A program made the translations under genes and the position numbers. The notes under the pieces are model-generated. The model saw only the letters and a program-made list of their open reading frames with translations. It ran no database searches and was not told the origin of the DNA. Shown in pieces: positions 9,595-48,410 of a stretch of DNA of 53,403 bases. Each line of letters starts with the position of its first letter. The first letter of the stretch is position 1. Where the stretch lies: contig UYFQ01000026.1 of NCBI GenBank assembly GCA_900617105.1, positions 1-53,403 on the forward strand, given 5' to 3'. Source of the DNA: Hydrurus foetidus. Lineage: Eukaryota.

Positions 9595-9911
9595 TGTTGG
9601 GGATTCTCTGAATCCGGATGCTTCGCACTCGTGGCGACCGGTGACCCAAGGCTCGTAAAATAGACTTGTATTGCGTAATTACTTGAGAATTAAACTTGTG
9701 CGCCGGCATCAATCAAGACGGCAACGAAGCTTTACATTTCAACGCAATTGCACATGGTCATCCGTGTTGAAGATAGATGAATGGGTGGCTACACTAGCCC
9801 ACACATCCAACGGTCCACGGTCCTCACCACTGGGGTGCCCACCGCTGACCGTCGGGATCCATGCATACGCTATACAACTACAGCAGTGTCTTTTCTCCGG
9901 ATACTCCAACA
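9595..9911 (-). repeat. Copia A 3' LTR
   Basis: Near-identical to 35295-35611; TG..CA ends; lies just downstream of the RNase H end. Confidence 0.95.
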
Positions 9912-13535: not shown

Positions 13536-14268
13536 CTACTCTAACTCCCTTAGCTCCGAGCTGGACTCCGTCAAGGAGGATCGAATGCTGCGATTTCCTG
13601 ATGCCTGTCAGGAGGCTCGGATTGCAGAAGATGTTGACGGACGCCTGGTTGTCCAGCAACACATGGCTCCTCGTGAACAGTGCCACTTCGTTCGTCGTGA
13701 CGAACACCGCTTCGAAGCTCTCGTCATCCTCGTCGATCTCGCCTTCTGCGCCTGTGAGCATAGCGTGCTCCCCGACCTTGCGTTCATCGCAGTCTTTCGC
13801 GTAGTGGCCAGTCTTTCCACATACGAAACATGTCACCGTCGAGGCTTTCTTCTTTGCGACAGGAGTCTTGCCTTTCGCGCCTTTTCCTGCGACTTTTTCC
13901 TTTGTTCCAACCGGGGTGTCGGTCAGGAACGCGGAATGTTGCTCGGCGCCAAGGGGGACTCCTCCGCCGGCGTTCGTCCAAGATGACGCAACCCTGTATG
14001 CTCCGGCTAAGGTGGAAGGGTAGCTGTTTGGTATGTTTTGTACGGCGCTGTTACGCATATATGTCAACATACCGGTATACCTTTTCGGGTCTAGCTTACT
14101 GAGGAAGTCGATGGCTCTCATCGGTTCTTCCACCACAGCCATGCCTACACCCTTGTTGGCTAAAACCTGATTGTCGAATCTCGTTTTGAAATCCCCGATT
14201 ATCTCACGCTCACCCTGTGTGAGGTAGTTATACCTCAGTGTCTGTTCGTGGACGTTTACTGCTCTCAT
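13375..14268 (-). CDS. gag: Copia A gag C-terminal part with zinc knuckle and aspartic protease (copy 1)
   Basis: CFVCGKTGHYAKDC knuckle; protease VLLDNQASVNIF..ANILS. Continues in frame from 34712-34880 (HIYGEDD|SMRAVN) once gypsy B is removed. Confidence 0.9.
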   Translation of the reverse strand: MRAVNVHEQTLRYNYLTQGEREIIGDFKTRFDNQVLANKGVGMAVVEEPMRAIDFLSKLDPKRYTGMLTYMRNSAVQNIPNSYPSTLAGAYRVASSWTNAGGGVPLGAEQHSAFLTDTPVGTKEKVAGKGAKGKTPVAKKKASTVTCFVCGKTGHYAKDCDERKVGEHAMLTGAEGEIDEDDESFEAVFVTTNEVALFTRSHVLLDNQASVNIFCNPSLLTGIRKSQHSILLDGVQLGAKGVRVDEEGNFGEIGPVYYSRGATANILSFAAMVDSGANIQYHHASGCFGQQDDIPLQ

Positions 14269-14274
14269 GGAGTC

Positions 14275-14596
14275 TATGCTGGATCACGGCTTCGACGAAC
14301 TGGTCGAAGATGAAACGTTGATTGTCCAGTTGGGCAGATTGGCGCAACTGGAGATCCTGTCAGACGGATTGGACTGAACAAGGGATTTGGCTGACTCAAA
14401 GGAGTCGAAGTCGGTTTTGGTTTGTAGTAACGGTAGTTAATTAGATGTGAAAGGAGTGTGAGATTAGCTACGATGAAGTGTGTCTCGAGTTGAAGTTGTC
14501 GAACAGTCAGAAACCGAAAACTGGTCCGAAAAACTACGAGTGACGTGGATTGTGTATGTACATACGTGTGAGCAATGTGTGGTAACGAATGTAACA
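14275..14596 (-). repeat. Gypsy B 3' LTR (copy 1)
   Basis: Same sequence as 21612-21933 and 34386-34707; preceded by TSD AGTC (14271-14274). Confidence 0.93.
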
Positions 14597-14609
14597 CCAC
14601 CCTCTTCTC
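14597..14609 (-). other. Polypurine tract of gypsy B
   Basis: Minus strand GAGAAGAGGGTGG directly abuts the 3' LTR. Confidence 0.85.
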
Positions 14610-14843
14610 GGGTGAAATGTATTATAGGTGAAAACCGCAAAGCTGGAGGTACGAAATGTTTGTTAGGGTTGCTGTGACGTCATTACTTTTTTTTACTGGA
14701 TGAAAAAAACGGAAAAACAAAAAACTAACTGACAGTTGTGAGTGATAAATACATTGTTCGAATTCACATGAGATGCATAATTTAATAAGCAGCATACACT
14801 GCACACTGCGCAACATACTGCACAACACACTACACAACAGACC

Positions 14844-15482
14844 ATGAAAGACGAATTCAAGAAATCAAAGAATTTGTGCATGGCGGCGGCGATGGTTTTG
14901 CCGTTGTCAGCGCAACAACAGAGGTGGATGAGAGTAGGTGGTGATGCAGGCAACGCGTTCCAGAAGTCACTAGGGAAAGAGAATGATGATGGGCTATTAT
15001 ATGGTGCATCTGCTGAGGACGCTGTAACGTATTTGAAGTATGTTTGTGCGAGTAACAAGAAACGGGGAATTAAATTGAAATATGAGTTCCGGAGAGTTAC
15101 GGGGAGGCATGGGAAGATTCGTAGATGGACTGCACACTCAATTCCGAGTACAATTTTGGAGAAGAAAGGCATTTACGTGATATTTGGAAAATCGAAATGG
15201 GCGAATGCTATTCACGCGGCACTTATGAAGAGGATCAAGAAAGCGAGTTGCGTAGGTGAAGAGCTGGAGATATACAGCAAGGTGGCTCAGGGGATGAGCA
15301 GGAAATATCATGCAATGAGCATTCGTAATGATGAAAATGGTGTGAGACTGTTTGATAATGCATGCACTAACGGTAGCGTTGAGTTTAGTATTGAGAACTT
15401 GGCGGGTAAAATGATTGATTTGACTAACTGTTATTATTTTGATTTGTGTGAGAAGGTGAAGAAAACGAAGATAATTAAATAG
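14844..15482 (+). CDS. Antisense cargo ORF in gypsy B 3' region, 212 aa; candidate papain-fold Cys-His-Asp hydrolase (copy 1)
   Basis: Uninterrupted ORF with ACC-ATG start between the chromodomain stop (15651-15653) and the PPT; motifs NLC12MAAAM, GIYVIFG, YH156AMSI, LFD171N. Confidence 0.7.
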   Translation: MKDEFKKSKNLCMAAAMVLPLSAQQQRWMRVGGDAGNAFQKSLGKENDDGLLYGASAEDAVTYLKYVCASNKKRGIKLKYEFRRVTGRHGKIRRWTAHSIPSTILEKKGIYVIFGKSKWANAIHAALMKRIKKASCVGEELEIYSKVAQGMSRKYHAMSIRNDENGVRLFDNACTNGSVEFSIENLAGKMIDLTNCYYFDLCEKVKKTKIIK

Positions 15483-15650
15483 AGTTTTTATTAGGGGGCG
15501 AACCCACATTTTGAATGCCGTCCTCACATAATAGCTTCAACTATTGCTACAATGAGTGGGAAAAGGAATGTGGGCAAGCCTCAGACGTGTTCACAAAGTC
15601 GGAGAATTCCAGCTTGATTATGATGGAGCGATTTTTTGAAGGTAAGTTTT

Positions 15651-16217
15651 TTATTTGTATTGTGTTGGAATGATATTCGACATGTTGTTGTTGTTGAGGT
15701 AGTCGTGTACAACAGACACTCTCTTCATTTCAGCCCATGGTTCCCATGAATCATGTGCTGAGGAATAGTTGTGCCAACGGATTAGGAACTCGAGCGACGA
15801 TACTTTTTGGGATTGCCACGGTGAGTGATAACCAAATCGACGATATATTCATCATGGTCTATTAGTGCTGCTGTTTCTGCATCGGTTTTTGAACCAATGA
15901 ATGGCGTCACTCTACTTGAGTGAAGTATTGAGATGATGTTTGTAACGACATGTCGGCAGTTGATATCGTTTTTTGATTGTTTTATCACTTCGTATGGTCC
16001 GAGGAGTTTCGGAGAAAGCTTACTGGATCGTAGGGATTGCGGAGTCTCTAATGGATTCCATAGTATGTAATCTCCAGGTTGGTATGTGTTGTGCGAAGTA
16101 GGAGGCGTGTTTAATTGACGTTTACGGCGTAGCGATTCTTGATATAAACTAGTTATTGATCGTACGATTGCTAGGTTGCGATCAAGAGCTGTTACAAGAT
16201 CACAATACGTGTGACCT
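15651..16217 (-). CDS. Gypsy B integrase C-terminus with GPY/F motif and chromodomain (copy 1; one frameshift)
   Basis: KLSPKLLGPYEV; EYIVDLVITHRG then, in a shifted frame, LEFLIRWHNYSSAHDSWEPW..VHDYL..QYK-stop. Confidence 0.88.
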
Positions 16218-16486
16218 TGTGGTCTGACGGCGGGGCCTAGGACGGGAGGCGAAGTTGGAGAAGGCGGAGGACGGAAGGCGTGGGCAAACGAAGGCAAAGT
16301 CGAGAGTCGGTGGAATAGACTTGTGTTAGTATCTTACAGTTGAGTATATACAAGTGATGTGTACGCTAAGTGCATTCACGTCATATGTGGAACTAAGACC
16401 TAAAAGTGGAATCTGAGCGTAATATACCTATTGTACCTAGTTAACCTAGACACATTGTATTCCCTTAGGAATGCAATAAGGCTACA
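16218..16486 (-). repeat. Gypsy C 3' LTR (copy 1)
   Basis: TGTGG..CTACA, 269 bp; matches 23555-23823 and 29015-29283; PPT GGAAGAAGGGGTAG adjacent on the minus strand (16487-16500). Confidence 0.93.
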
Positions 16487-16685
16487 CTACCCCTTCTTCC
16501 TTTTTGAAGATCTTTGAAGATATTTGATTTGATATACAGAAAATATGAGATGAAACGAATGTCATTTATACTGATATAGATGAAACGAAGACCCGTAGGT
16601 TTTACTGACTAAACTCTCCAAAAAAGACCCGTAGGTAAAAAAAATAGGAGAGAATCCTCATGGATAAAGTTTCAAATATATTAAG

Positions 16686-17340
16686 TCATCGATGTTGCTT
16701 ATTGATTAATTTAGTCATGTTATTATGACGTAAATAATCATGAAGTTTATCAACATCACGAAGATTTGAATAAGGTTCCCAAGTGTTTTTGTCTGAAGGG
16801 TAATTTAACCATTTGACTAAAAACTCTATGTGGGTACGTTGGTGTTTGCCACGATGATCAAGAATGTCTTCAACAAAGTATTCCATGTGATCACGTCGTG
16901 CAACATCCAACGGATTTGTGATTGAAGGGTCAAATAGAAAAGGTTTCATTGCAGAAACATGAAACTCTGAAGTTTTCTGAGTGACTAAATCATAAAGTGT
17001 GTAACGCGAATTTTCGCCACTAACGACTTTTAATGGGCCTCTCCAATGCGTGTGAAGACGTGAAGGAGGGGATCCATCGCGATAGTGCACTAAGACATAA
17101 GAGTCTTTTGGATAATCTACATGCTGAAAAACTTGAGACTGACTTTGATGAAGCAAATCTGTGCGAAGAAGTTCTTTAGCAGAAGCTTTAAGAAGACTGT
17201 CTTGCGTTTTGAGTAGATTGCTCATACGCTTTGACAAAGGTTTGTCATCAGTAACATTTCGCTCAGCAGGAGGTAAAAAGATACCTCTATCGAGTTTTAG
17301 TACATTTCCGAAAAGAAGTTGAGAAGATGATATTTTTAAA
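16686..17340 (-). CDS. Gypsy C integrase C-terminus and chromodomain (copy 1, runs into garbled junction)
   Basis: HWRGPLKV..FHVSAMKPF..YFVEDILDHRG..EFLVKWLNY..NTWEPY. Confidence 0.88.
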
Positions 17341-18990
17341 CGATCACTGTGATTAAATTTAAAATTCGTTGCACAAATCCGTGACGTTTTATAATTTCTA
17401 GTGTGACATTATCATGTTAGCACGAAGAGTCTATTTCTTTATTCATGCGCGAACTGTGATATTTAGAGCCTTGGTCGACAATGACGTTTTAATAATAATC
17501 TTAATACGTTCTGAAGTGTGGCATACAGAACGGATGTATATCAAACTTTTTAGCCGAAGTAGCAAGAGATTTTGCTGTTGAAAGTGCTGTAAGATTCTGT
17601 ATGAAACAGTTCAACCATCTTGTGATAATATCGATTTGTTGTACGCCGTATGGGAACGGTCAATCTATGTAAGGCCCAGAGAATTTAGAAATAGCAATAT
17701 GAATGATGATTTAACATATTTGATTCTGACAACACGACAAGTGACTGCCACGGAGAGATTATTGCCAAATATCTTTTTCAAGGAGGAAAGTGCGCTCACC
17801 GAAATCCCCGATCAATTGTGCTACTTTACATGTGGACCTCAGGCATCGATGTGAAACTGTATGAGGAAGTCCATCAATAGAAGCTTGATCTCCTAGTCAG
17901 TTGGGCGTTCTCAGAAATTATCAGGCTGCATTTCCTTGTGTATTATTCATTTTAAATGAACCATATTCCAATAAGCTCACCACATCCGTGATCTCCTTTT
18001 GATTTGAACTTGACCATCATTGGACACAAAATAATATGATCTGCAGGCACAGAAGTTTGAGTTTCGAGAGAACGATGACAACTTTTTGTGCCACCCAACG
18101 ACTGAGCTTTGTTAAGATTCGCCTATCTCTTTCCGAAAAGTACCTCTAGTGGCAGTGTGCTTGGCGGATCACTTTGCACGTCCTGATTTTGAAAGATTTC
18201 ATCACATTCCTGCTCTGAGATCATCTATTGTCCATTATATTCATATCTCATGGTTAAACCTGAGGTAAGTTATAGAGCGTCCATGTCTTGAAGCTAATCG
18301 CCATCCATACCTCTTGAGTTGTCCTTCCACTGGTGGAATACGGAACAGTCTTGTTCGTCTCGTTATCAGCAGTGTCGGTAATTAGGCAACCTACACTTAT
18401 TCGCGTTTAAGGCAGCGTCACTGTTGAAACGACAAACATCGTGAATATTCCGATGTCGGACCCCAATCCCATGCATGGGAAGTATAGATATCATCAACCA
18501 CAGACGTGTCTCTAACGCAGGGTTTAGTCATTCTTCGGTGTCAGCACAAACAAGTCGCGTTGTGAACTTGCGTCTTCGGATCAGAAGTCTATGATCAGGT
18601 CGGTCATAGTGCGATCCAAGCGCATGTGCAACGGTGTCTCTAACGTCATGTCCGCATTCAGGTATCGCCACTGATGTAACTACCGCCATCGGCGCTCACT
18701 ATGTGCAGCGATCGTAGCAGGGTGAACACGGCGCTGGTCACAAGGTAAGTGAGACAGGTGTCATAAAGGCTCTTGTCCTGCTGGTCGCCCCTGTACCAGC
18801 CTGGTTGTGCTTGATGAAGCTTCCGTCTGGGTTGTTCTTTTGCTTCAAAAATATGCAAGATCTGATTGTTGATGCCCTCTGCATCGCTGACAGCTTAACT
18901 ACCATGACCGGCACCCGATACTCGCTTGTCGATCACTCTGCTTCAGCTCCGAGACGATGACTTTCTTGGCTTCGTCACCTCGTGACGTGG
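17341..18990. other. Garbled mosaic junction, probably unpolished or misassembled consensus
   Basis: Indel-riddled patches match 24660-25400, then both 10800-11100 and 3470-3770, then 11240-11650 with rising identity. Confidence 0.75.
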
Positions 18991-19378
18991 AATGCCTCCT
19001 TGACGCTGATGTTCGCCGTATTGCTCTTGCTCAGCTCGTCCTTGTGGCGCTTCAGCACCTCTTCCACATCGTGCGTCGACGCCGCTGTGCTCTTTGTACT
19101 CGCTGCTGCGCTTCCGTCATCCGTTACGAATGCACCCTCGCTCGTGTGTGATGATCGAGTCACCATTCGCTCGGTGGGTGCAGGCACCCTGCGTTGCTCT
19201 CTTGCTGCCGGATGCACTGGTTGTGCCGTGTCCGCTGCCGCTGGTTCGCTGTCTGGTGCGGATGCGTCGTCGGGAATGTCACTCGGAAGTGCCGGTTCGT
19301 GAGGCGGTGTGGGTGGTGTAAGTACGTCTTGTCCGTGCACCCCAATTGCCTCGATTTCCTCTGGTACTGCTGCCGTGT

Positions 19379-20872
19379 CTACTGCCGCTGGTACCCCCCC
19401 CTCCACATCGCAGGGAGGAATCTCGAGAATGTTATCGGCAGATGGTAGGTCGAGGAGGGTTGGTGGATCCTGCACCGATCGTTTGTCGATCCTGTCATCC
19501 TGAGTGGGGGGTTGGTAATGAAGGTTGGCAAGTTAGATTTGTCGAGGCTGTTGGTGAACAGCAGTTCATCAAACACATGCAATTTCGTTTGTGTGATTAT
19601 CTCCCCTTCGCAGACTGCCATGGCGTTCAGGGTCATGATGACTGACTGAGGCATCGGCAGTATCTTGAACTGGTTCCGCGTGACGATCTTGCCAGTAGCG
19701 AGTGATAGCATCTTGAACGAGCCAGTCCTGTTATGAGATGGTAGCATGACAACGCAATCTTCAGTACGCGACGACATTGTGTTGTCAGTGTTAGATACTG
19801 TACAGACGGCGTAATCCCCGAATGCTGCGCGGAAGTCCAGGTTCCCGTCAACCCGCCGTCCTGAGAAGAGTTCCCTCGGAGACAGACCCCCTGGTCTTGA
19901 TCCTGACTGCTGGCAGTTGATACGTGATACGCAGAATAGTGCAAGGTAGATTAGACATAGTTCATTCGGAGTGAATGGCAGTCTACCGTTGATGTGGGCG
20001 CGTATTCGCTCCTTCACCATCTGGATGCGTCGCTCGATTCTCGCCACGTGACCTCCAGCTGCACTGACATCAACCTTGATTCCAAGTGCCATCAGCTCCA
20101 CCCTCATTTTGCCGATAGCCTCTTCCCCGTCCGACATGATGACATGTACCAGGAAATTCCTGGATTTCAGGACCGATATCATCTCATTCAGTGCAGGCTG
20201 TACCACTGCCGCTGCACGTAAGGTTTTTGCACTGTCAAGTCGAATGAGACTCACGGCGAGAGTCATGTCAAGTGGGGTTGATACAGCAATAAGTATTGCA
20301 GTGGTCTCCAAGTACATGATATCTACACTCAGCACTTGTTGCTGTTGAGCTGACGCAGGTGTCAGGGAAATGTCCGCGACGGGCGATGATTTCTTGTGCG
20401 TCTTCCCACGCATGCTGGCGAGACACTTCCCCCAGATAGTATGGGCGTTCCTGAAATCGGCCTCCGACACTCTGAAGTTGTTCCCACCGCGAATCATCGC
20501 GATCGCCATCTCGACTGGCGGGTATCCCATACGCGCTATCAGCTCCCTGACTGCTGCTGCTGACGCTATCTCACGTTTCGTGAACCTCATCAAATTCTCT
20601 CTGACGGTGGCGACTAGCGCTTGCTCGACGGTGTTGCGATGCGGCTCGAGTTCTGCCATGCCGCTCGCATCGCACACGTAGAATCGTCCAGTTGATCCTG
20701 GCAGATCCTGCCTACTGAAGCGGTATGTCGTCCTGCTGCCCGAAGCACCCCGACGCATGGTGGTACTGGATGTTGGCTCCACTGTCAACCATCGCTGCAA
20801 ACGATAAGATGTTGGCAGTTGCTCCTCTGCTGTAATAGACAGGGCCGATCTCGCCGAAGTTACCCTCTTCAT
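19379..20872 (-). CDS. pol: Copia A integrase (duplicate copy, frameshifted at a G run ~19505)
   Basis: Near-identical to the N-terminal part of 10101-13535. Confidence 0.85.
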   Translation of the reverse strand: MKRVTSARSALSITAEEQLPTSYRLQRWLTVEPTSSTTMRRGASGSRTTYRFSRQDLPGSTGRFYVCDASGMAELEPHRNTVEQALVATVRENLMRFTKREIASAAAVRELIARMGYPPVEMAIAMIRGGNNFRVSEADFRNAHTIWGKCLASMRGKTHKKSSPVADISLTPASAQQQQVLSVDIMYLETTAILIAVSTPLDMTLAVSLIRLDSAKTLRAAAVVQPALNEMISVLKSRNFLVHVIMSDGEEAIGKMRVELMALGIKVDVSAAGGHVARIERRIQMVKERIRAHINGRLPFTPNELCLIYLALFCVSRINCQQSGSRPGGLSPRELFSGRRVDGNLDFRAAFGDYAVCTVSNTDNTMSSRTEDCVVMLPSHNRTGSFKMLSLATGKIVTRNQFKILPMPQSVIMTLNAMAVCEGEIITQTKLHVFDELLFTNSLDKSNLPTFITNPPLRMTGSTNDRCRIHQPSSTYHLPITFSRFLPAMWRGGYQRQ

Positions 20873-21605
20873 CTACTCTAACTCCCTTAGCTCCGAGCTG
20901 GACTCCGTCAAGGAGGATCGAATGCTGCGATTTCCTGATGCCTGTCAGGAGGCTCGGATTGCAGAAGATGTTGACGGACGCCTGGTTGTCCAGCAACACA
21001 TGGCTCCTCGTGAACAGTGCCACTTCGTTCGTCGTGACGAACACCGCTTCGAAGCTCTCGTCATCCTCGTCGATCTCGCCTTCTGCGCCTGTGAGCATAG
21101 CGTGCTCCCCGACCTTGCGTTCATCGCAGTCTTTCGCGTAGTGGCCAGTCTTTCCACATACGAAGCATGTCACCGTCGAGGCTTTCTTCTTTGCGACAGG
21201 AGTCTTGCCTTTCGCGCCTTTTCCTGCGACTTTTTCCTTTGTTCCAACCGGGGTGTCGGTCAGGAACGCGGAATGTTGCTCGGCGCCAAGGGGGACTCCT
21301 CCGCCGGCGTTCGTCCAAGATGACGCAACCCTGTATGCTCCGGCTAAGGTGGAAGGGTAGCTGTTTGGTATGTTTTGTACGGCGCTGTTACGCATATATG
21401 TCAACATACCGGTATACCTTTTCGGGTCTAGCTTACTGAGGAAGTCGATGGCTCTCATCGGTTCTTCCACCACAGCCATGCCTACACCCTTGTTGGCTAA
21501 AACCTGATTGTCGAATCTCGTTTTGAAATCCCCGATTATCTCACGCTCACCCTGTGTGAGGTAGTTATACCTCAGTGTCTGTTCGTGGACGTTTACTGCT
21601 CTCAT
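20712..21605 (-). CDS. gag: Copia A gag C-terminal part and protease (copy 2)
   Basis: Same protein as 13375-14268. Confidence 0.88.
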   Translation of the reverse strand: MRAVNVHEQTLRYNYLTQGEREIIGDFKTRFDNQVLANKGVGMAVVEEPMRAIDFLSKLDPKRYTGMLTYMRNSAVQNIPNSYPSTLAGAYRVASSWTNAGGGVPLGAEQHSAFLTDTPVGTKEKVAGKGAKGKTPVAKKKASTVTCFVCGKTGHYAKDCDERKVGEHAMLTGAEGEIDEDDESFEAVFVTTNEVALFTRSHVLLDNQASVNIFCNPSLLTGIRKSQHSILLDGVQLGAKGVRVDEEGNFGEIGPVYYSRGATANILSFAAMVDSGANIQYHHASGCFGQQDDIPLQ

Positions 21606-22180
21606 GGAGTCTATGCTGGATCACGGCTTCGACGAACTGGTCGAAGATGAAACGTTGATTGTCCAGTTGGGCAGATTGGCGCAACTGGAGATCCTGTCAG
21701 ACGGATTGGACTGAACAAGGGATTTGGCTGACTCAAAGGAGTCGAAGTCGGTTTTGGTTTGTAGTAACGGTAGTTAATTAGATGTGAAAGGAGTGTGAGA
21801 TTAGCTACGATGAAGTGTGTCTCGAGTTGAAGTTGTCGAACAGTCAGAAACCGAAAACTGGTCCGAAAAACTACGAGTGACGTGGATTGTGTATGTACAT
21901 ACGTGTGAGCAATGTGTGGTAACGAATGTAACACCACCCTCTTCTCGGGTGAAATGTATTATAGGTGAAAACCGCAAAGCTGGAGGTACGAAATGTTTGT
22001 TAGGGTTGCTGTGACGTCATTACTTTTTTTTACTGGATGAAAAAAACGGAAAAACAAAAAACTAACTGACAGTTGTGAGTGATAAATACATTGTTCGAAT
22101 TCACATGAGATGCATAATTTAATAAGCAGCATACACTGCACACTGCGCAACATACTGCACAACACACTACACAACAGACC

Positions 22181-22819
22181 ATGAAAGACGAATTCAAGAA
22201 ATCAAAGAATTTGTGCATGGCGGCGGCGATGGTTTTGCCGTTGTCAGCGCAACAACAGAGGTGGATGAGAGTAGGTGGTGATGCAGGCAACGCGTTCAAG
22301 AAGTCACTAGGGAAAGAGAAAGATGATGGGCTATTATATGGTGCATCTGCTGAGGACGCTGTAACGTATTTGAAGTATGTTTGTGCGAGTAACAAGAAAC
22401 GGGGAATTAAATTGAAATATGAGTTCCGGAGAGTTACGGGGAGGCATGGGAAGATTCGTAGATGGACTGCACACTCAATTCCGAGTACAATTTTGGAGAA
22501 GAAAGGCATTTACGTGATATTTGGAAAATCGAAATGGGCGAATGCTATTCACGCGGCACTTATGAAGAGGATCAAGAAAGCGAGTTGCGTAGGTGAAGAG
22601 CTGGAGATATACAGCAAGGTGGCTCAGGGGATGAGCAGGAAATATCATGCAATGAGCATTCGTAATGATGAAAATGGTGTGAGACTGTTTGATAATGCAT
22701 GCACTAACGGTAGCGTTGAGTTTAGTATTGAGAACTTGGCGGGTAAAATGATTGATTTGACTAACTGTTATTATTTTGATTTGTGTGAGAAGGTGAAGAA
22801 AACGAAGATAATTAAATAG
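22181..22819 (+). CDS. Antisense cargo ORF in gypsy B (copy 2), 212 aa
   Basis: Same as 14844-15482 except Q40K and N47K. Confidence 0.7.
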   Translation: MKDEFKKSKNLCMAAAMVLPLSAQQQRWMRVGGDAGNAFKKSLGKEKDDGLLYGASAEDAVTYLKYVCASNKKRGIKLKYEFRRVTGRHGKIRRWTAHSIPSTILEKKGIYVIFGKSKWANAIHAALMKRIKKASCVGEELEIYSKVAQGMSRKYHAMSIRNDENGVRLFDNACTNGSVEFSIENLAGKMIDLTNCYYFDLCEKVKKTKIIK

Positions 22820-22987
22820 AGTTTTTATTAGGGGGCGAACCCACATTTTGAATGCCGTCCTCACATAATAGCTTCAACTATTGCTACAATGAGTGGGAAA
22901 AGGAATGTGGGCAAGCCTCAGACGTGTTCACAAAGTCGGAGAATTTCAGCTTGATTATGATGGAGCGATTTTTTGAAGGTAAGTTTT

Positions 22988-23554
22988 TTATTTGTATTGT
23001 GTTGGAATGATATTCGACATGTTGTTGTTGTTGAGGTAGTCGTGTACAACAGACACTCTCTTCATTTCAGCCCATGGTTCCCATGAATCATGTGCTGAGG
23101 AATAGTTGTGCCAACGGATTAGGAACTCGAGCGACGATACTTTTTGGGATTGCCACGGTGAGTGATAACCAAATCGACGATATATTCATCATGGTCTATT
23201 AGTGCTGCTGTTTCTGCATCGGTTTTTGAACCAATGAATGGCGTCACTCTACTTGAGTGAAGTATTGAGATGATGTTTGTAACGACATGTCGGCAGTTGA
23301 TATCGTTTTTTGATTGTTTTATCACTTCGTATGGTCCGAGGAGTTTCGGAGAAAGCTTACTGGATCGTAGGGATTGCGGAGTCTCTAATGGATTCCATAG
23401 TATGTAATCTCCAGGTTGGTATGTGTTGTGCGAAGTAGGAGGCGTGTTTAATTGACGTTTACGGCGTAGCGATTCTTGATATAAACTAGTTATTGATCGT
23501 ACGATTGCTAGGTTGCGATCAAGAGCTGTTACAAGATCACAATACGTGTGACCT
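22988..23554 (-). CDS. Gypsy B integrase C-terminus and chromodomain (copy 2)
   Basis: Same as 15651-16217; continues from 29288 (PLLPG|HTYCD) after removing gypsy C. Confidence 0.88.
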
Positions 23555-24012
23555 TGTGGTCTGACGGCGGGGCCTAGGACGGGAGGCGAAGTTGGAGAAG
23601 GCGGAGGACGGAAGGCGTGGGCAAACGAAGGCAAAGTCGAGAGTCGGTGGAATAGACTTGTGTTAGTATCTTACAGTTGAGTATATACAAGTGATGTGTA
23701 CGCTAAGTGCATTCACGTCATATGTGGAACTAAGACCTAAAAGTGGAATCTGAGCGTAATATACCTATTGTACCTAGTTAACCTAGACACATTGTATTCC
23801 CTTAGGAATGCAATAAGGCTACACTACCCCTTCTTCCTTTTTTGAAGATCTTTGATTTGATATACAGAAAAAAAGAGATATGTAAAACATATATATGAGA
23901 TATAGATGAAACGATTATGTCAGACTTTTACTGACTAAACTCTCCAAAAAAGACCCGTAGGTAAAAAAAAATAGGAGAGAATCCTCATGGATAAAGTTTC
24001 AAATATATTAAG

Positions 24013-27000
24013 TCATCGATGTTGCTTATTGATTAATTTAGTCATGTTATTATGACGTAAATAATCATGAAGTTTATCAACATCACGAAGATTTGAATAA
24101 GGTTCCCAAGTGTTTTTGTCTGAAGGGTAATTTAACCATTTGACTAAAAACTCTATGTGGGTACGTTGGTGTTTGCCACGATGATCAAGAATGTCTTCAA
24201 CAAAGTATTCCATGTGATCACGTCGTGCAACATCCAACGGATTTGTGATTGAAGGGTCAAATAGAAAAGGTTTCATTGCAGAAACATGAAACTCTGAAGT
24301 TTTCTGAGTGACTAAATCATAAAGTGTGTAACGCGAATTTTCGCCACTAACGACTTTTAATGGGCCTCTCCAATGCGTGTGAAGACGTGAAGGAGGGATC
24401 CATCGCGATAGTGCACTAAGACATAAGAGTCTTTTGGATAATCTACATGCTGAAAAACTTGAGACTGACTTTGATGAAGCAAATCTGTGCGAAGAAGTTC
24501 TTTAGCAGAAGCTTTAAGAAGACTGTCTTGCGTTTTGAGTAGATTGCTCATACGCTTTGACAAAGGTTTGTCATCAGTAACATTTCGCTCAGCAGGAGGT
24601 AAAAAGATACCTCTATCGAGTTTTAGTACATTTCCGAAAAGAAGTTGAGAAGATGATATTTTTAAACGATCACTGTGATTAGAATTTAAAATTCGTTGCA
24701 CAAATGGAAGTGACGTTTTATAATCTTCTAGTGTGACATTATCGAATGTTAATGCACGAAGATGTCTATTAACTTCTTTATTCATGCGCTCAACAATAGC
24801 ATTTTCTTCTTTAGAGTATGCTAAAGTAAGACAATGTTGAGTGCCAATAAGAGTTAGAAACTCTCTAATAACTTCGGAAATGAAGTGTGGCCCATTATCA
24901 GAACGGAGTTGGAGAGGTGCGCCGAAACGACCGAAGTGTTGCAAGAGGCATTTAGCTGTTGAAAGTGCTGTAGCATCTTCTGTATGAAACAGTTCAACCC
25001 ATCTTGTGAACGTATCGATAATTACGAGTACGTACCCGCCGTCTGGAAACGGTCCTATGAAGTCTATGTTAAGGCATTCCATAGGTGTGTAAGTAGAAGT
25101 TGAGAAACCATGAGCATGTATTGGTATCTTTAACATACTCATTTTCTGACAACACGAACAGTGATCTATGAACCACCTGACGTGCTGACGCATATATTGC
25201 CATACTATCTTTTTGTCAATGAGACGCTTTAAAGTGCGCTCAAGGCCAAAATGCCCAACTTGTGAATTGTGTACTTTACTGATTGTATTGTACTGATCAC
25301 GTGTTAGAATTTTCAATAGTATTAGCAGACATGATTGCATCAGGAGTATATTCCTGAGGGAAATCAACCATGTTATTGCGACAGAGTCGAGACATCGAAT
25401 CAGCTATATCATTGTTAGCACCAGGTATATATTCAATTTTAAATGAATATTCGGATAAGGCCATAAACCACCGAACAATCATTGGATTTGAATTATCCTT
25501 GATGTATAACAAGTTACGATGATCTGTACGCAATGTGAACGTACGATCACGTAATAGCGATTTTAAATACGTGCACGAATAAAAGATAGCATATGCTTCT
25601 TTTTGTATAACAGCCCAACGAAGCTGAGCTTTGTTAAGTGATTTACTGACAAATGCTATGGGCGTTTCTTGACCGTCAACTAGCTGTAAAAATAGGCACC
25701 TACACCATAGTCCGATGCATCAGTGTGCAAGTAAATCGGATCGGTGTCACTTAAAAAGTGCATAGTCGTGCATTTTGAAATCTCGGATTTGATCAAATTG
25801 AATGCTCTGAGAGCTTCTATTGTCCAAGTTATTTTCTTATACTTATTATAGTTAAGAAGCAACTGATGTAACGGGTATACAACAGTAGAAGCGTTTCTAA
25901 CAAAGTCGTGAAAATAATTAACCAATCCTAAAAAACTTTTGAGTTGTTTAGATAGTACTGGTTTAGGAAAATCTAAGACAGTCCGTATTTTTTCTTGTGA
26001 CATTCTAAGTCCATCTGCAGATAGAACTTTGCCAACATAATCTATTTCGGCATAGCCTAGATAACACTTATTCGGTTTAAGGAATATTTTGTGTTTTCTA
26101 AATCGATCAAACACAAGACGAAGTCTAGAAATAAGTTCGTCAATGTCTTTACCGAAAACATTGCAATCATCTATGTACATTTCGCATATAGAGTATATCA
26201 GCCCTGCTAACACAACAGTCGTCATAATCTGTTGGAAATAGGAGGGAGCTTGTTTAGGCCCAAAGGGTAAACGAGTGAATTGATATACTCCGCAGAAAAG
26301 TATGAATGCAGTATAAGCACGTGCAGCAAGTGTAAGTGGTGCTTGATGGTAACCTTGAGTGAGGTCAAGTACAGCAAACACTTTTGCTTTATGTGCACCT
26401 ATTCTACGCAACATCTCACCGATGTGTGGAATAGGATGTGATTTATCTTCGGTACAATTGTTGAGATTCCGAAAATCAATACACATGCGCTTAGTTCCAT
26501 CAGATTTTGGAACTAGCAAAACTTGGCTATAATAAGCCGCGTTCGATTTTTCAACAATATTTTGTTTTTCAAGTTTTTTATTTGACTGAGAATGTCAGCT
26601 TGATCAACTGTTGATTTAGCCCATGGAGGTTGTCTATTTTAGGAACTCTCCATTGGTCGTCATTGACATGAAAGTCAAAGGGTGGAATATCAGCAGGAGT
26701 GGCCGAAAGTTCACTGCTAAATATATCCTTGAATTCGTGTACTAGTAACCGAAGTTTATTTTTCTGATCTTCATCACCTGCTAAGTTTATTAGCGAGAGT
26801 GGGTCAGTATCAGGAAATTCATCTATCCAAGGTGAAAACGAGTCCTTGATCGAGTCGTCGATTTCGTCCTCATCAGGGGGCACAGCCTCAAAAAGTCTTT
26901 CAGACTCTTGTATTAGTGAAGCTAGAATAACATGTGTTTGGGTTACTGCCGGTTTCACCTTTTGGGTTAAAGGATCGACCTTTGGGGAGCCATCAGAGGG

Positions 27001-28912: not shown

Positions 28913-29014
28913 AACTTTGACGTGATGGTTTAAGTTGGAGGAGTCGAAGACAAAAAGTCGGAAAAGAGAAAAACTTTCTCGGAGGAAACTTCGGTGAAGA
29001 CCGAATATCGATAT

Positions 29015-29283
29015 TGTGGTCTGACGGCGGGGCCTAGGACGGGAGGCGAAGTTGGAGAAGGCGGAGGACGGAAGGCGTGGGCAAACGAAGGCAAAGTCGA
29101 GAGTCGGTGGAATAGACTTGTTTTAGTATCTTACAGTTGAGTATATACAAGTGATGTGTACGCTAAGTGCATTCACGTCATATGTGGAACTAAGACCTAA
29201 AAGTGGAATCTGAGCGTAATATACCTATTGTACCTAGTTAACCTAGACACATTGTATTCCCTTAGGAATGCAATAAGGCTACA
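29015..29283 (-). repeat. Gypsy C 5' LTR
   Basis: Matches 23555-23823; followed on + by TSD ACCT. Confidence 0.95.
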
Positions 29284-34175: not shown

Positions 34176-34385
34176 AGTTGAGGAAAGAGAAGAGATTTGT
34201 AGACTTTTTTTCTTCTTCTTTTTTGAGTGGCCTTGCGGGCTTATAAGATTGAGACTGAACTTACCTCAGAGATCTAAATTCCCGCTGAGCCAGGGCGATC
34301 ACTGCTTTCTGGCGGATAGGAAATGAATCAACTGAGGAGAGTCGATATTTCAAACGTTGTCTCGTGTAAACTAGAAATATATATT

Positions 34386-34707
34386 TATGCTGGATCACGG
34401 CTTCGACGAACTGGTCGAAGATGAAACGTTGATTGTCCAGTTGGGCAGATTGGCGCAACTGGAGATCCTGTCAGACGGATTGGACTGAACAAGGGATTTG
34501 GCTGACTCAAAGGAGTCGAAGTCGGTTTTGGTTTGTAGTAACGGTAGTTAATTAGATGTGAAAGGAGTGTGAGATTAGCTACGATGAAGTGTGTCTCGAG
34601 TTGAAGTTGTCGAACAGTCAGAAACCGAAAACTGGTCCGAAAAACTACGAGTGACGTGGATTGTGTATGTACATACGTGTGAGCAATGTGTGGTAACGAA
34701 TGTAACA
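34386..34707 (-). repeat. Gypsy B 5' LTR
   Basis: Same sequence as 21612-21933; element-sense ends TGTTAC..AGCATA. Confidence 0.93.
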
Positions 34708-35269: not shown

Positions 35270-35294
35270 CTCGATGCGCTAATTAGTTTAATTC

Positions 35295-35611
35295 TGTTGG
35301 GGATTCTCTGAATCCGGATGCTTTGCACTCGTGGCGACCGGTGACCCAAGGCTCGTAAAATAGACTTGTATTGCGTAATTACTTGAGAATTAAACTTGTG
35401 CGCCGGCATCAATCAAGACGGCAACGAAGCTTTACATTTCAACGCAATTGCACATGGTCATCCGTGTTGAAGATAGATGAATGGGTGGCTACACTAGCCC
35501 ACACATCCAACGGTCCACGGTCCTCACCACTGGGGTGCCCACCGCTGACCGTCGGGATCCATGCATACGCTATACAACTACAGCAGTGTCTTTTCTCCGG
35601 ATATTCCAACA
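35295..35611 (-). repeat. Copia A 5' LTR
   Basis: Matches 9595-9911; followed by TSD GTGTA. Confidence 0.95.
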
Positions 35612-40860: not shown

Positions 40861-41486
40861 GGTAGGGTAACAGGTAGTTTTCAGACCGCAAAAGGTGACG
40901 CGGACGAATATACAGTGCCGCTTTCAGGATCCATGATGTGATAGTGATATCAACAGATACGTAATCTAGTGGCTCTACCAACCTCACGACCTCTCTCATG
41001 CGGCTGTGATGCGGTCCTGAAATAAGAAAATGACGCAACCGATTGAGAGTCTTCTGACGCTACGAATTATTTCACGGTGTTAAATTCTGTGCAATCTTGG
41101 CGATGAAGACTCTCGAATTTTAAGGCATAATTTGACATTCACCTGAAGTTATTGATATCATAACTACGGGTTGATCACTTTGAACGAGGCCCTCAGGAAC
41201 CTGACTGGTAGTTTGATGAAGACTGGAAATTTCTGTGCTCAAGAAAACAGGCATCCACAGCAGGAGAATAGACGTCGCATCGAAAAATCTGCTACACATG
41301 GCGAAGAAGCGGAAGCACTTGGACTTCAGTTTCACGTTTCAGCTCCAGGTTACAAAAACATGATGCCAACGACACTATTGTGAAACAGACAGAAGATTTG
41401 AGATAAAGGAGAATCCAACATGTTGTGGTGAGCGGGTTGGGAAAAGGACTCCAGGAACTGGGCAGCGCAGTCTTGGAGTAATTAAT

Positions 41487-44400
41487 TGTTCCGGTTAACC
41501 GTGAAAACACCCTTGAATATCCAGGCAATTGATGCAATTAGCCTATCTCAAATCTGTTGATATTCGTGTTTCTGTTGCAATTCCTTTGCTACTGTAAGAT
41601 AAACTCCTGTTTATTCCTCACAAGCCTTCGAATCCAGTAGGCGCTACTTGTATCTTGATCTCGAAGTGTAGTACTTGGAAGTAAGCTGGAAGCTTATTTA
41701 GTTGAAACAAAGAAATATACCAGTTGCAACAATTACGACATAAAAGCAAGCTGTATATTCCTACTGCAACGGCAACGTGTGCGTCTTTCTCAATCAGTTG
41801 TGAATCATTCAGATGTGTGCTGTGCAACTATATTGATTCCACTTCAAGTATCATGGATCACATCACAGAAGGTTCTTGGACCCAAGTCCTCCTGAACATA
41901 CCCCCTGATGTGGACCACCGATCGACAACTGAAAATTGACTATCTAATACTGAAATGAATAAAATTGACTGGCCCTGAAAAGTTTTAACGGCCCTGAAAA
42001 TATTTTAACGGCATTCGAAACCTTGACAGACTTCGTCATACTCAAATCGAAATGCTCCTATCGAAAGACATATTTCACCACAATTTAACCCATCAAAAGC
42101 CCGGTGAGCTTTCCTAACAGGGCACCATGTAGGGTTTTCGTCAAAGTGTCCGCGACCATGTCTCCTGTGGGCAGATATTCAACTTTGATCTCGTTGGCTT
42201 CGATGTAGCTGGTAATGAAGAAATATCTGTTCTTGATGTGCCTTGTGCGTTCGCTTGTGGACTTTCCCTTATTCACTAGGCAAATTGTTAACTTGTTGTC
42301 TTGATACACGATCGCAGGTCCAACTCGAACGCCTTGGTGAATAATGTACTCCCTCGTCCAAAGTATCTGTGAAAGAGCATCCGAGAGAGCAACCAGCTCT
42401 GACTCGGTGGATGACCGGGTAACTATTTTCTGCTTTGCACTTTTCACATAAACTGTTGCGTTATCGATCATGACGACTACTCCAGTCACTGACCTCATGT
42501 CATCATATGTACCGAAGGACGCATCCATGTACGCCCGCACCGTGGTATCCGGTCCAATTCAGAGAGTCAGTGTCTTGTGTGGGGTTGCTAGGAGATACCC
42601 CAAGATTCTATTTAGCTTGGCCTCGTCGTCTCTATCTGGCCCTAAAATTCTTGTTGCGCAGTAAGACACTGCTGTCAAGATGTCGCCACGGATTCTCTTG
42701 GCAAGGTAATGCAACTCAATTACACACGAATGGAACCATTGCCTTTTTACATCTCCCAACTTTTCGCATTCTGAGTTTGTTTGGAAGAGCATCTCAGTGG
42801 CCGGTGTCTTTGCTTTCTTTGACCGCATACTTTTCTAATATATTATTGACATACCCTTTCATGGATAGGACCACTGTTCGATGTGCTGTAAAATCCCAGT
42901 GGATACCCAAAAAGTCGTGCTCAGTACCTACTTTCAGGGTGACTTCTTTGTACATTTCCTTGAGTGCATTGGCAATGGAAACAAGAGTATCCGTAGACTT
43001 CGAGGTGAGCATGAGGTCGTCCACGTAGACTAGTATGGTATCAGTGCAACCTGTTTGATGTCTCACGAATGAGCACTCATCATAGGGATTCTTTTTAAAC
43101 CCCAGGTTCTCCAGCGTGCCGGAGAGTTCCTTGTACCACAGGACAGCTGATTCTATGCAGCCGTAAAGTGCTTTGCGAAGTCGCACAATGATCGAACCAT
43201 CGGCTCGAACGTATTTTGCATGGCGCGGAGATACGCGGTACAACAAGCTAGCCACCTCTTTCCCGATGCTCATCTCGACCACGTGTCCAACCATCGTGGC
43301 ATTGAGGTACGCAACTTTGTGATCGAGTGTCATGACGTTGTATCCTCTGTCTGCTGCCAATGCTGCTGTCATCAAAACTGAAGAGAGTGCGACTGTCGGT
43401 GATGATGTTTCATGATCTGTGTACAATGATCTGTCCTGGCGACGGCCTCCTGCTACTAGCCTAGCTTTCATTCGATCGATGTTCCCATTTGGTAATTTCT
43501 TCGGCGTTAAAGATATTTTTGATGGTATTTGTGACCTCATTTTATAATCTCGATGCTGGAACTCGAATACATCTTTCTTAATACAATTCTCGATTTCTTC
43601 TACTATCGCAGCATCTGCCACCTCGTCACCATAGAGCCTCTTCGCTTCCTTTATTGAGAAGGTGGCATACACGTGTTGATCTGTAGTTGTCTTCCTCAGG
43701 TTGTACCCATTGTCGAAAGTGTTTCTCGCAAGAGTATCTTCATCTGATTGCTGTGTATCTTCGATTACATCCTCGATTGTAACTAAACTGTTTCCTTTCT
43801 CGCCGATATTGTTTTCTTCCAAAACTTCTTGGTCAACTTCGACAGGAATTCTGAGTGGAAGTGCCTCATTAGATTGGGGTGTCGTTGATTCTTCGAATGG
43901 AATCAAATCGCTGTCTGAGATCGTCTCAGCGGGTACAGGAGTCATCTGGGCGACTTCTGGCATTATGGTCTCTTCTTCAGTGTCTTGTACTTCATCTACC
44001 CCCCGATCTGGATCCAGAGGGTATCATGTGTCGGGATTGAGCAGTGGTGGTTCTTCTATGACAACTGCTGCAGAAACTGGATGACTCGCCATTGCCTTGA
44101 GTATTTTAATCGCATCTTCTGTCAAAGGAGCCACGCGGAACGTGTCGCCAGTGATTTACCTGAGTGTCGCCAGACTAAGGCACCTGTGAGTTCCTTTCTG
44201 GTTTCGGGTTGTTCCGAGCCAAAGACAGTAGTCAGCTCTAGGGCGGCTGTGTTGGTTAGTGGGCCCGGTGCTTTCTGCAGGAATCCTGCAGTTCCAAAAG
44301 GATACGGAGCATCCAACTTGCAATTTGGCACTCTGCCTCTAAAGGAAGTGTACGCTGGGGTGTGACCAGGCGAGTTTGCTTTTGGGACCATATTGGACAG

Positions 44401-47144
44401 ATGAACGACAAAAGCGATCAGAGCTGCCGTCAACTTTGTCGGAAGAGGAAAAGGCAGGCTGTGTAGGGTGCAGCGAGCCTTATTCTTGACATGCCTAATT
44501 GCAGCTTCTGCATGTGGGGCATGGGAACCGTGGCCAAGGATGTTGAGATCAATATCGAGATTCTCAACGTCTCTACGAACTATCTTCACTGCTCCTTCGC
44601 CGTCGGATGTGAAGCCTTTTGAGAGATGCTGTTGTATGTGCAGAAGCAGAGCTTGTCCTGTAAGTGGACGTGATTTCTCATTGTGACTTCCGATTGATTT
44701 TTCTATCCCAGGTCCTAGATGTGTGACCATTATCAGCCCGAGGATGACGGATATGCTGAGGAAGAAAGTCTGCCCCAAGAAGTAGAACAGATCGACCTGT
44801 AGTTCCTGAGCTACTGAATCGTGCAGTGGAATTCTGTCATCACCGCGTGTCTTCGTTTTCAAGTGAGTACCTTGACCCAGTTGATACGCTGCAGGCGTTC
44901 GGTATATGTCTTGAGCAATCACAAGGTCAGACCTTGTGAACGGAATGTCTTTCGTGCTGCCTCGCTGAATGAACTCTGCCGCAGCTTTATAACTGATGTA
45001 TCCCATTCGTTGAATAAACTCGTAGGCGAGATGATAGCTAGCGAGCTGCTTCGCAGAGTACTTGAATGCTTTGGGGTTTATCGCGATAGCGTAGGCGTGG
45101 GCGACTTTCGCGAGGTCCAGCACGTAATGTCCGTTTGCACAATGTAAGGTGTGAGTTGAACCGCTAGTGGGAACAGCACTGAATGTGTCAGTGTGTGAGT
45201 TATATTGAATCACGTGTGTATCGAGCAGCTTGTGGTAACTGATTATATTCGCTGACATGTGTGGACTGAAGTAACATTTTAGACCGATGTCTGTGACGGT
45301 AGCCTCCATGTGAACCCTGACTCGATCTCCCGTGATACCCTGTCCGATGATTAGGTTGTCGGCTGTGTGCATGTCACTGACAATGCTCCGATTTCGGACG
45401 ATGTGGATACTGGACTGCGTGTCTAGTAGGATGATTGTGTCTTGATCATTAGTAACATTGGACAAGAACACGTTAGAGACGTTATCCTCGAGTTTGACCT
45501 CCATCTCGCGGCTGCATGTTTCGACGGATGAGTAAAATGTTGCCTCATCTTCATCGATGGCGTCGGTGAAATGGACGCTTTTCACCGTGCAAACTGAAGC
45601 CCGATGTCCCTTCCTCTTACATCTCCAGCAGACGATTTCACTTGGGGTTATGGGACCCTGTACCACTGTACGACCTTCTCGGCCGTCTTTATTCCCGCGG
45701 TCACCACGGTCATTACGGCCACCTCGACCTCCACACGCTTCTCCCTTTCCTCCCTCTACTTTATCGTCTGTTTGGGAGCAATAGACACTCTCCAGGTTGC
45801 CGCCACCAGTGCCACGGAAACGGATGATTTGGGCATCTTTGACCTCTCGCCAGAGTGTTGCGCTTGCAGCTGGGAGATCCGCAATTCCTCTGCGCTCGTT
45901 ATCAAAGTAATCTCTGGCGAGCTGGGCATACCGGGACATATCGAGCCTATTAAGGATTCCAACGACTAACTCCTCCTCCGGGATAACAGCTAATCCGACT
46001 GCTAGTCTTTCAAGTTGATGATCTTCGACTCGTTTGCGAAATGCAAAACTCGTTTCGTGTTGGAACATTCGGAGGCTAGCCCATGCTGTTTGGACCCGCT
46101 CTCTGTCTTGTCCCGGATTGCCGCTCTGTCGTGCAATATGAGTGGCACGTATTCTAGAGATGAGGAACAGGAGATCCCGCTCTAAGAATGCGGTTGGCCA
46201 GTCCTCGTCATCTTGTACCTCGCCTCTCGAGGATTCACTTAATTGTGAGTAGACCAAGGCGAATACTGCTAACTTCTGCTCTTTTATTTTCTTCGACTCC
46301 GATTTCCAATCCTTATGATCATTCTGATATTCTGATAGGACTGCTTTTCCAACATTCCCTGCTGGTATGTCTTCTGGCATGAGGGGCTCTTCGTCCTCCT
46401 CGCCGTACTCAGGAGGAGTTGACCAGAAAGCACGGCAAATGGATGGCTTGTAATTGATTGCGACATGCTCGCCCATCGTTTGCATGAAATCTATGGGCTT
46501 ATTTTCCTTCGCTGAGGCGCCGAAGTTTAAGCTGGGCAGCTCTGCATTACTGCCACGGAATTTGGGTTCTTTTTCCGTCTTTGCTTGAGCCTCTGGAGAA
46601 GACCTCCCGCGGCCAGCTCACCTTGCTTGGCCTCTCGGCCCTTGTCTATTTCCGCGTCCAGACATGGATTCGATCTGAGATTCTCTCTCACTTATATAAT
46701 CTTGGCAAATGCTCTTTGCTAGATGATATATATTTCTTTGTGTTCCGGTTAACCGTGAAAACACCCTTGAATATCCAGGCAATTGATGCAATTAGCCTAT
46801 CTGTTGATATTCGTGTTTCTGTTGCAATTCCTTTGCTACTGTAAGATAAACTCCTGTTTATTCCTCACAAGCCTTCGAGTCCAGTAGGTGCTACTGTATC
46901 TTGATCTCGAAGTGTAGTACTTGGAAGTAAGCTGGAAGCTTGTTTAGTTGAAACAAAGAAATATACCAGTTGCAACAATTACGACATATAAGCAAGCTGT
47001 ATATTCCTACTGCAACGGCAACGTGTGCGTCTTTCTCAATCAGTTGTGAATCATTCAGATGTGTGCTGTGCAACTATATTGATTCCACTTCAAGTATCAT
47101 GGATCACATCACAAAAGGTTCTTGGACCCAAGTCCTCCTGAACA
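41487..47144 (-). mobile_element. Ty1/copia LTR retrotransposon D (full length, decayed, no matching TSD)
   Basis: LTRs 41487-41898 and 46741-47144 (TGTTC..GAACA, several substitutions and a 7-bp indel); G-rich PPT next to the 3' LTR; gag-PR-IN 44122-46485 (CWRCKRKGHRASVC, LLDTQSS, QVDLF, SDGEG); RT 42794-43963 (KARLVAGG, YVDD); RNase H 42085-42540. Confidence 0.94.
42085..46485 (-). pseudogene. gag-pol: Copia D gag-pol, split by frameshifts and stops
   Basis: ORFs 44122-46485, 42794-43963, 42559-42828 and 42085-42540 carry successive copia domains. Confidence 0.9.
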
Positions 47145-47318
47145 CAAAGCACCTTCCTACAGTATTCCCGTCGATAAGTCATGGGATATCGACGGTGTCA
47201 AATCGGTTTGCCAACAGTTTTGACGGAGCGAAGCGAAGTAAACTGTGGCAGAAGAGAGAGCATTCTTCGTATCGTCTCTGGTCTCGGTGCTGTAAAACTG
47301 TCGTTACTTTCGACCAAA

Positions 47319-48410
47319 ATGAAGTTCAACATCATTTACGAGGATTCGTCAGGTGCTTCGGAAAAGTTTGTCGCTTCCATAACTGATTACTTAAAAATTG
47401 AATATGATCAGTTGCTTCAAGGCCGCAAAATGAGTAATCTCTTTTTAAAAGACACTGACACAAAGATGTGGATTCGCATCCCTTCCATTAAAGTACTGCG
47501 CTGTCTCTTGTCAGCTGTCAGTGATGAAGTAGCAGCTGTATCAATCATATTTTCCGAATTAGATGTGTCGCCAAATCAATCTCGTCAATCCAGCCCTGGA
47601 AGTGGAGAAAATCCAGATGAAATTGACGACTTTTCTCATCGCGTGTCTAGAATGCGATTGGATTTTAAAGATGAATCAACGCTTGGCGGGAGGTCTGCTG
47701 CCAACTCGTTGGAACCTTTCACTATGAATAATGTGTCGGACATATTGGCGCAGGAGTTACTGATTCTTCCTGATGACGATGATCCTGAAATGACCATAAG
47801 AATTCATGCGCCCTCACTTTTGGTGCACATAAGAAGCGAAGTGTTTGACGGCACGCATATATACGACATAACGGTACAAGCCCAGTCAGAGAGCAAAATG
47901 TTGAAAACTACTTTGAAAAAGAATATATGGACTACTTACTTATTAAGAGTGAACGGTTGTTCAGATATATTTCTGGATTTCATGGCTTCTTCATTAGGAA
48001 ATGTAACTATGCTCGATAGGTCTCTTCTGGAACTACACCAAAAAAGTATCCTATGGAATAAAGTAAAGGTCTTCCATAATGATCTCAAGACGTTTGGACA
48101 AAGCGCAGAAGCTCAGAAGCGTCTAGATGCAGACCCGATGGCATTTTGTTTCATGTCTTCCATTTATTTTACTGAAATTGAGCTGGAATATCTTCATAGT
48201 TTTCCTACTTCGTCAGGGTTAACTTGTAAAGAATATCTAAGTGCTTTGATTGAATCCAAAATTGGTTCCGGAATCAAAAATGCTACATTGTGTACGTCAC
48301 ATGATCTTGCGACCGCCTTTGCCAAAATATACGGGATTCGGAAAGAGTACTCGAAGGATACACAATTCAAGAAATTTTTAAAAGATTTTGGAAAAGTCCG
48401 AAAAGTATAA
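47319..48410 (+). CDS. Intronless ORF of unknown function, ~363 aa (likely start CAAAATG at 47319)
   Basis: Over 1.1 kb of open frame with globular-looking composition and a Ser/acidic linker; no TE motif recognised. Confidence 0.6.
   Translation: MKFNIIYEDSSGASEKFVASITDYLKIEYDQLLQGRKMSNLFLKDTDTKMWIRIPSIKVLRCLLSAVSDEVAAVSIIFSELDVSPNQSRQSSPGSGENPDEIDDFSHRVSRMRLDFKDESTLGGRSAANSLEPFTMNNVSDILAQELLILPDDDDPEMTIRIHAPSLLVHIRSEVFDGTHIYDITVQAQSESKMLKTTLKKNIWTTYLLRVNGCSDIFLDFMASSLGNVTMLDRSLLELHQKSILWNKVKVFHNDLKTFGQSAEAQKRLDADPMAFCFMSSIYFTEIELEYLHSFPTSSGLTCKEYLSALIESKIGSGIKNATLCTSHDLATAFAKIYGIRKEYSKDTQFKKFLKDFGKVRKV

Follow-up and report, generated by a model that had tools for sequence, protein, structure and literature searches.

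The PBS of the retrotransposon copia D is perfectly complementary to a short segment inside its own LTR, and a pairing of this kind was found, in other letters, in 30 of 40 distinct relatives. This PBS-LTR pairing is real, lies far beyond chance and is a property of a large copia group. Judging from the sequences, the copia D lineage of aquatic protists probably uses Tf1-like self-priming, in which an LTR segment of 10-19 nt at the RNA 5' end takes the place of the tRNA. The initial annotation of copia D had pointed to a self-priming copia lineage, a reading supported by the frequency of matches among the relatives, by their different letters and by their placement in one RT group.

Copia D and its PBS-LTR pairing

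The window, that is the whole stretch of DNA that was analysed (53,403 nucleotides), is a nest of LTR retrotransposons comprising copia A, D and E, identified by RVT_2 matches, and several gypsy elements. The 5' end of copia E falls past the window end. The features of copia D, and of copia A as a comparator, are the following.

46741..47144, minus strand: 5' LTR of copia D, 404 bp, TGTTC...GAACA, a direct repeat of 41487-41898
46729..46740, minus strand: PBS position of copia D, 12 nt adjoining the LTR, without TGG, complementary to an LTR segment
46953..46965, minus strand: predicted self-primer of copia D, consisting of the PBS complement (46954-46965) and one further base, the partner of the final LTR base
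42085..46665, minus strand: broken gag-pol frame of copia D with CCHC knuckle, protease, integrase core, RT and RNase H; RVT_2 match
41899..41906, minus strand: polypurine tract of copia D, AGGGGG-TA, ahead of the 3' LTR
41487..41898, minus strand: 3' LTR of copia D, 412 bp, holding the 13-mer a second time at 41707-41719
35285..35396, minus strand: comparator region of copia A, with PBS at 35285-35294, 5' LTR at 35295-35611 and the match at 35386-35396, CA lying just before it

On the plus strand, positions 46729-46741 read TATATTTCTTTGT; the reverse complement of this sequence occurs at 46953-46965 and 41707-41719 and nowhere else in the window. The 13/13 match takes in the 12 bases past the LTR and the final A of the LTR. 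When the LTR was dinucleotide-shuffled 20,000 times, a match of at least 13 nt arose only once (the far end of the LTR was set at 47148 in this test, 4 bases too wide, which leaves the match unaffected). The inverted repeat reported in the initial annotation, including its second copy in the 3' LTR, was thus confirmed. Copia A has an 11/11 match between 35285-35295 and 35386-35396, reached by 6 of 20,000 shuffles, and its letters are unlike those of copia D. The 3' LTR of copia A lies at 9595-9911, and the element is flanked by a 5-bp target duplication, GTGTA. The LTRs of copia A and D had been described as dissimilar and indeed gave no blastn match at E 1e-5; the RT-RNase H regions of the two elements are 38% identical.

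Copia D belongs to Ty1/copia by its TG...CA LTRs, its polypurine tract, its gag-PR-IN-RT-RH order and its RVT_2-type RT. The two LTRs (404 and 412 bp) are 96.8% identical, with 5 mismatches and two indels; their termini form a 5-bp terminal inverted repeat, and the final base of the 5' LTR is 46741. The relatives have GG(A/G)G(T/C)G in common as a polypurine tract ahead of TGTT. An intact relative of 1541 amino acids (P0001), which carries CCHC at 361, LDTQ at 429, DLFY at 640, YVDD at 1228 and RNase H at 1393-1470, aligned with copia D by tblastn in three frames at 85-94% identity. Copia D itself is a dead copy: codon 16 is a stop, the frame shifts near 44240-44300 and again near 42800-42820, and its flanks show no target duplication (TTAAT at 41482-41486 versus CAAAG at 47145-47149). 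For want of this duplication, copia D may have arisen by recombination between two copies. It is deeply covered by contigs from two runs, and one contig of run X5 exits the window exactly at the LTR edge, 41487, which together fit a multi-copy family.

The plus-strand CAAAG at 47145-47149, outside the 5' LTR, is the inverted form of the first five PBS bases, so that the terminal inverted repeat comes to 10 bp; this is either chance (about 1 in 1000, post hoc) or the trace of a template switch onto the primer. Metatranscriptome contigs spanning 42703-46339 have five joints inside copia D, four of which are bounded by GT..AG when read on the plus strand, which is antisense to the frame; these joints, each from single contigs at a depth of 2-6, are possibly spliced antisense transcripts. 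A plus-strand open frame of 410 codons (47178-48410) begins 34 bases outside the 5' LTR and has RNA contigs over its start. Pfam gave no match for this frame, and its Atlas scores were at most 0.80, none of them convincing.

Among the neighbouring elements, both gypsy elements with a readable 5' end carry a perfect 12-bp palindrome at the position of the primer site, including the last LTR base and without TGG. These palindromes, at 34375-34386 and 29004-29015, read AAATATATATTT and AATATCGATATT; the 53-kb window holds only 16 palindromes of this kind. They resemble the GalEa site discussed below and may represent another tRNA-free priming design. The gypsy LTR of about 320 bp showed no PBS-LTR complement (4 nt, the LTR end having been set 2 bases short). 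A gypsy element with 270-bp LTRs is nested in one with 322-bp LTRs, itself inside copia A, and a 6.9-kb tandem duplication (10772-17635 and 18122-25019, 95.5% identical) includes part of copia A and nested gypsy pieces.

Pairing and lineage of the relatives

The frequency of matches was tested on metagenome relatives instead of a genome-wide copia set. An alignment of 34 full-length relatives led to 79 metagenome loci, the best of 551 confirmed in 7 of 64 parts read (about 5,500 matching stretches are estimated), and to 21 loci from contigs in bacterial MAGs. The latter contigs (L080-L100) encode the eukaryotic copia group and are probably misbinned eukaryotic DNA. Viral contigs gave 13 stretches, none of which was confirmed as a copia relative. 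In 42 of the 100 loci a family polyprotein begins after the pol end, either within the contig or once the contig is closed on its terminal overlap. The 58 loci without an LTR-PBS-gag junction and two duplicates were dropped beforehand, giving a survey of 40. For each, the longest perfect match was sought between a segment starting at -2 to +1 of any CA and the upstream sequence, and 200 dinucleotide shuffles per locus were passed through the identical search. This anchored test replaced an earlier unanchored scan, which needed a downstream ORF and took in 3' LTRs adjoining host DNA.

Thirty of the 40 relatives had a perfect PBS-LTR match of 11-19 nt, equalled by at most 2 of 200 shuffles and in 27 cases by none; the mean of the shuffles was 6-9 nt. 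In 22 of these 30, the anchoring CA completes a 4-9 bp terminal inverted repeat with the start of the LTR as located from the polypurine tract. Control segments displaced by 20-50 nt gave a median match of 5 nt and none of 10 nt or more, and pairing the PBS of one element with the LTR of another gave the same median, with at least 10 nt in 5 of 992 pairs. The claim that the pairing is not due to chance was borne out by these relatives, which stand far above their matched controls. All 30 PBS 12-mers differ from one another, and a tRNA-type TGG near the LTR end was found in 0 of 30. Among three elements with proteins 77-82% identical (L010, L012 and L014), the arm ends TTCT...AAT are kept and the middle is altered in both arms, so that covariation is seen directly among close relatives.

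As to the identical register proposed for copia A and D, the match starts at the first base past the LTR, with zero spacer, in 32 of 32 matched elements, and this part of the proposal stands. Inclusion of the last LTR base is not general: 13 matches end exactly at the LTR end, 17 reach one base into the LTR and two reach two bases.

The ten relatives that were not significant against their own shuffles are heterogeneous. The best helices of most of them contain 8-13 paired bases, at an LTR end that is plausible or mutated. In L044, 13 of 14 positions pair, at a proper LTR end; 9-11 pairs were seen in L009, L021 and L036, whose LTR ends look mutated, and 9-10 in L057 and L092. The pairing is doubtful in L005, L006 and L055, and the best helices of L037 gave none that was convincing.

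A tree of the RT-RNase H region (57 rows, quick IQ-TREE, with L017 left out as too short) showed a long branch (SH-aLRT 100) that separates copia A, D and E and all placed loci from nine canonical copia proteins. With FastTree one outgroup row, P0095, which is long and poorly aligned, fell among the diatom rows, and the other eight remained together. An RT tree had been named as a check on the self-priming reading, and on it the matched elements do group together, apart from canonical copia. Matched and unmatched loci are intermixed, and the PBS-LTR trait therefore appears group-wide and not limited to a sub-branch. In the RT-RNase H region, the 31 matched rows of the tree are 33-82% identical to one another, with a median of 43%. 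Copia D is 25-27% identical to canonical copia (three LYGL-type proteins), from which it is separate on the tree. The RT motif of its group is LYG(C/T)xxS/A, and the group lies a long branch away from copia of the LYGLxQA type.

Proteins named after Fragilaria crotonensis and Fistulifera solaris fall among the matched loci, and L007 has as its sister a protein of a Sphacelaria rigidula assembly. Bacillariophyta is the commonest phylum, from 3 members, in the top Atlas cluster for the RT of P0001. Because diatom-named proteins lie inside the group and Bacillariophyta is commonest in this cluster, the copia D group is likely CoDi-like; it is set beside CoDi through diatom-named proteins, and copia D is just 37% identical to those proteins.

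RNA 5' end and priming model

The LTR arm of the pairing begins in a characteristic way. A CA marks its 5' edge in 25 of 30 relatives, where 3.4 would be expected, and its head is YA in 30 of 30 (8.3 expected), with the profile T-C-A-(T/C)-(T/A)-N-T-T. Two published initiator consensus sequences, the oomycete YCAYTYY and the mammalian YYANWYY, are given in PMC3599244, according to which INR+FPR is lacking in Thalassiosira. The former matches 11 of 32 arms against 0.6 expected for a YA, the consensus being that of oomycetes; the latter, a mammalian consensus, matches 13 of 32 against 3.0. Measured from the A of the arm up to the base that lies opposite the start of the PBS, the distance comes to 15 nt in 13 of 30 relatives and to 13-17 nt in 28 of 30. 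No positional peak of TATA-like words was found upstream of the arm, and AATAAA-like words there were neither enriched nor peaked.

The CA or YA at the arm head fits a transcription initiator and would mark the RNA start. Copia A fits this pattern, with CA just before the arm. Copia D fits it less well, having GG before the arm and its first YA one base inside, at 46964 and not at the position of about 46965 predicted in the initial annotation. From the initiator pattern of the clade we infer that transcription of copia D would start at 46964 or 46965, the former giving an 11-nt primer. Among the RNA contigs listed, none covers the LTR or the PBS of copia D; the RNA runs hold 7-10% of words, a figure that is not evidence of habitat.

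The copia D helix is A/U-rich and weak (-10.4 kcal/mol). When the leader was folded, the primer:PBS helix was present in both the minimum-energy and the centroid structures, and with a start at 46964 the pair probabilities were 0.88-0.99 for 10 of 11 primer pairs. The z-score of the fold, -5.8, takes in other hairpins and is no test of the primer helix. A coarse search for Tf1-type flanking duplexes of 12 nt detected none as a group feature (the mean z of the two flanks was 0.08 and -0.25, and values below -2 occurred in 2 and 3 of 32 elements).

We propose the following course of priming. Transcription would start at the YA heading the segment, in copia D at about 46964, a point 224 nt ahead of the LTR end. 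In copia D the leading 11-12 nt of the RNA, and in most relatives about 14-15 nt, would then fold onto the PBS. By analogy with Tf1, RNase H would cut behind the paired stretch and leave a 3'-OH, from which minus-strand DNA would begin at the terminal CA of the LTR; RNase H motifs are present in the copia D family (P0001). Plus-strand synthesis would recopy the PBS from the primer in each cycle, as is known for tRNA primers, and this recopying would explain why both arms change jointly and remain perfectly complementary. On a broader reading, to which we lean slightly, a whole deep branch of Ty1/copia, abundant in aquatic protists, would have lost tRNA priming independently of Tf1/sushi and of TAR, using a sequence-free capped end of 10-19 nt without the flanking duplexes required in Tf1, which would be a minimal form of self-priming.

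Several other explanations were weighed. The arms are A/T-rich and 10 of the 40 relatives do not rise above their shuffles, as might be seen if the inverted repeats had arisen by chance in A/T-rich DNA; the single shuffle in 20,000 for copia D, the 30 significant relatives and the flat shifted and cross-element controls refute this, and its probability is practically nil. The helix could instead be a leader structure acting in packaging, dimer formation or translation control, priming being left to another molecule such as an internal tRNA fragment. Half-tRNA priming exists in the copia elements Osser, Bryco, Gymco-II and Bianca (PMC6317226), and the 53,403-nt window contains no host tRNA. A tRNA site should be conserved, however, yet the 30 PBS 12-mers are all different, and a structural helix would have no need to start at the very first base past the LTR as all 32 do. 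Such a division of roles is quite improbable.

A primer could also be tRNA-free and self-derived without being the folded-back capped 5' end, if it were a copy of the segment from the RNA 3' end, a cleavage/poly(A) product or a second RNA. The segment is present in both LTRs, and the flanking duplexes typical of Tf1 were not detected, which would suit a 3'-end or second-RNA primer. A CA followed by U-rich sequence is also a possible poly(A) cleavage site, and the conserved CA could be one. Against a poly(A) product, the sequence after the CA fits the initiators at the frequencies given above, and the upstream sequence has no AATAAA-like peak, a point that is not decisive since protist signals may differ. 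We consider this origin of the primer unlikely and retain priming by the RNA 5' end as the preferred reading.

To our knowledge, experiments have shown self-primed reverse transcription only for gypsy elements of the Tf1 group, and self-priming in copia has so far been predicted from sequence in plants. A third, probably independent, case would come from a deep copia branch in which dozens of compensatory variants occur naturally. Such a branch makes testable whether the RNase H of a copia element can cut an RNA-RNA duplex to yield a primer for itself, and whether elements lost tRNA priming on several occasions or acquired it as a later invention. In practical terms, elements of this kind will be missed or misclassified wherever LTR annotation depends on a tRNA match.

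Comparison with known systems

Like the copia D group, CoDiI and CoDiII of diatoms (Branch 1 of Ty1/copia) are divergent stramenopile copia elements (PMC2806351, PMC2774666); term searches of these two papers turned up nothing on CoDi priming. Our literature search, whose coverage mostly excluded subscription papers and Repbase Reports, found no description of algal or protist copia elements that prime themselves. For elements of Thalassiosira pseudonana, Repbase entries reportedly mention self-priming palindromes at the primer site and may be partial prior art.

The fungal GalEa copia elements are without a tRNA PBS and have a Conserved Hairpin Site instead (PMC5445492). The GalEa site is a local palindrome or hairpin with no complement in the LTR, whereas the complement of the copia D PBS sits in the LTR.

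The idea of a self-priming copia is not new in itself, as it was already predicted for the plant lineage TAR. According to the prediction of Neumann et al. (2019, PMC6317226), 12% of plant elements self-prime, including TAR (Houba, Osr-1), the basis being a match of at least 10 bp starting 0-5 bp past the LTR; copia D and copia A have matches of this kind. The copia D group differs from the LYGLxQA-type copia on the tree in its RT motif, given above. Plant TAR copia elements have an RT motif of the LYGLxQA type.

In Tf1, the RNA's first 11 bases pair with the PBS and RNase H cuts between bases 11 and 12 (PMC7175516); self-priming there needs two duplexes flanking the primer helix (PMC10085805). 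The Tf1 mechanism is experimental, and the copia D group is known here from its sequence. Tf1/sushi elements are Ty3/gypsy chromoviruses, whereas copia D has the copia domain order and an RVT_2-type RT. Unlike the three-duplex 'pretzel' of Tf1/sushi, the copia D group has no detected flanking duplexes, and its primer span of 10-19 nt, mostly 13-16 nt, differs from the 11 nt of Tf1. As in Tf1 and Tf2 of Schizosaccharomyces pombe and in Tf1/sushi elements, the PBS of copia D adjoins the LTR and complements an LTR segment at the RNA start, which for copia D is a predicted one, and its pairing of 11-12 nt is close to the 11 nt of Tf1.
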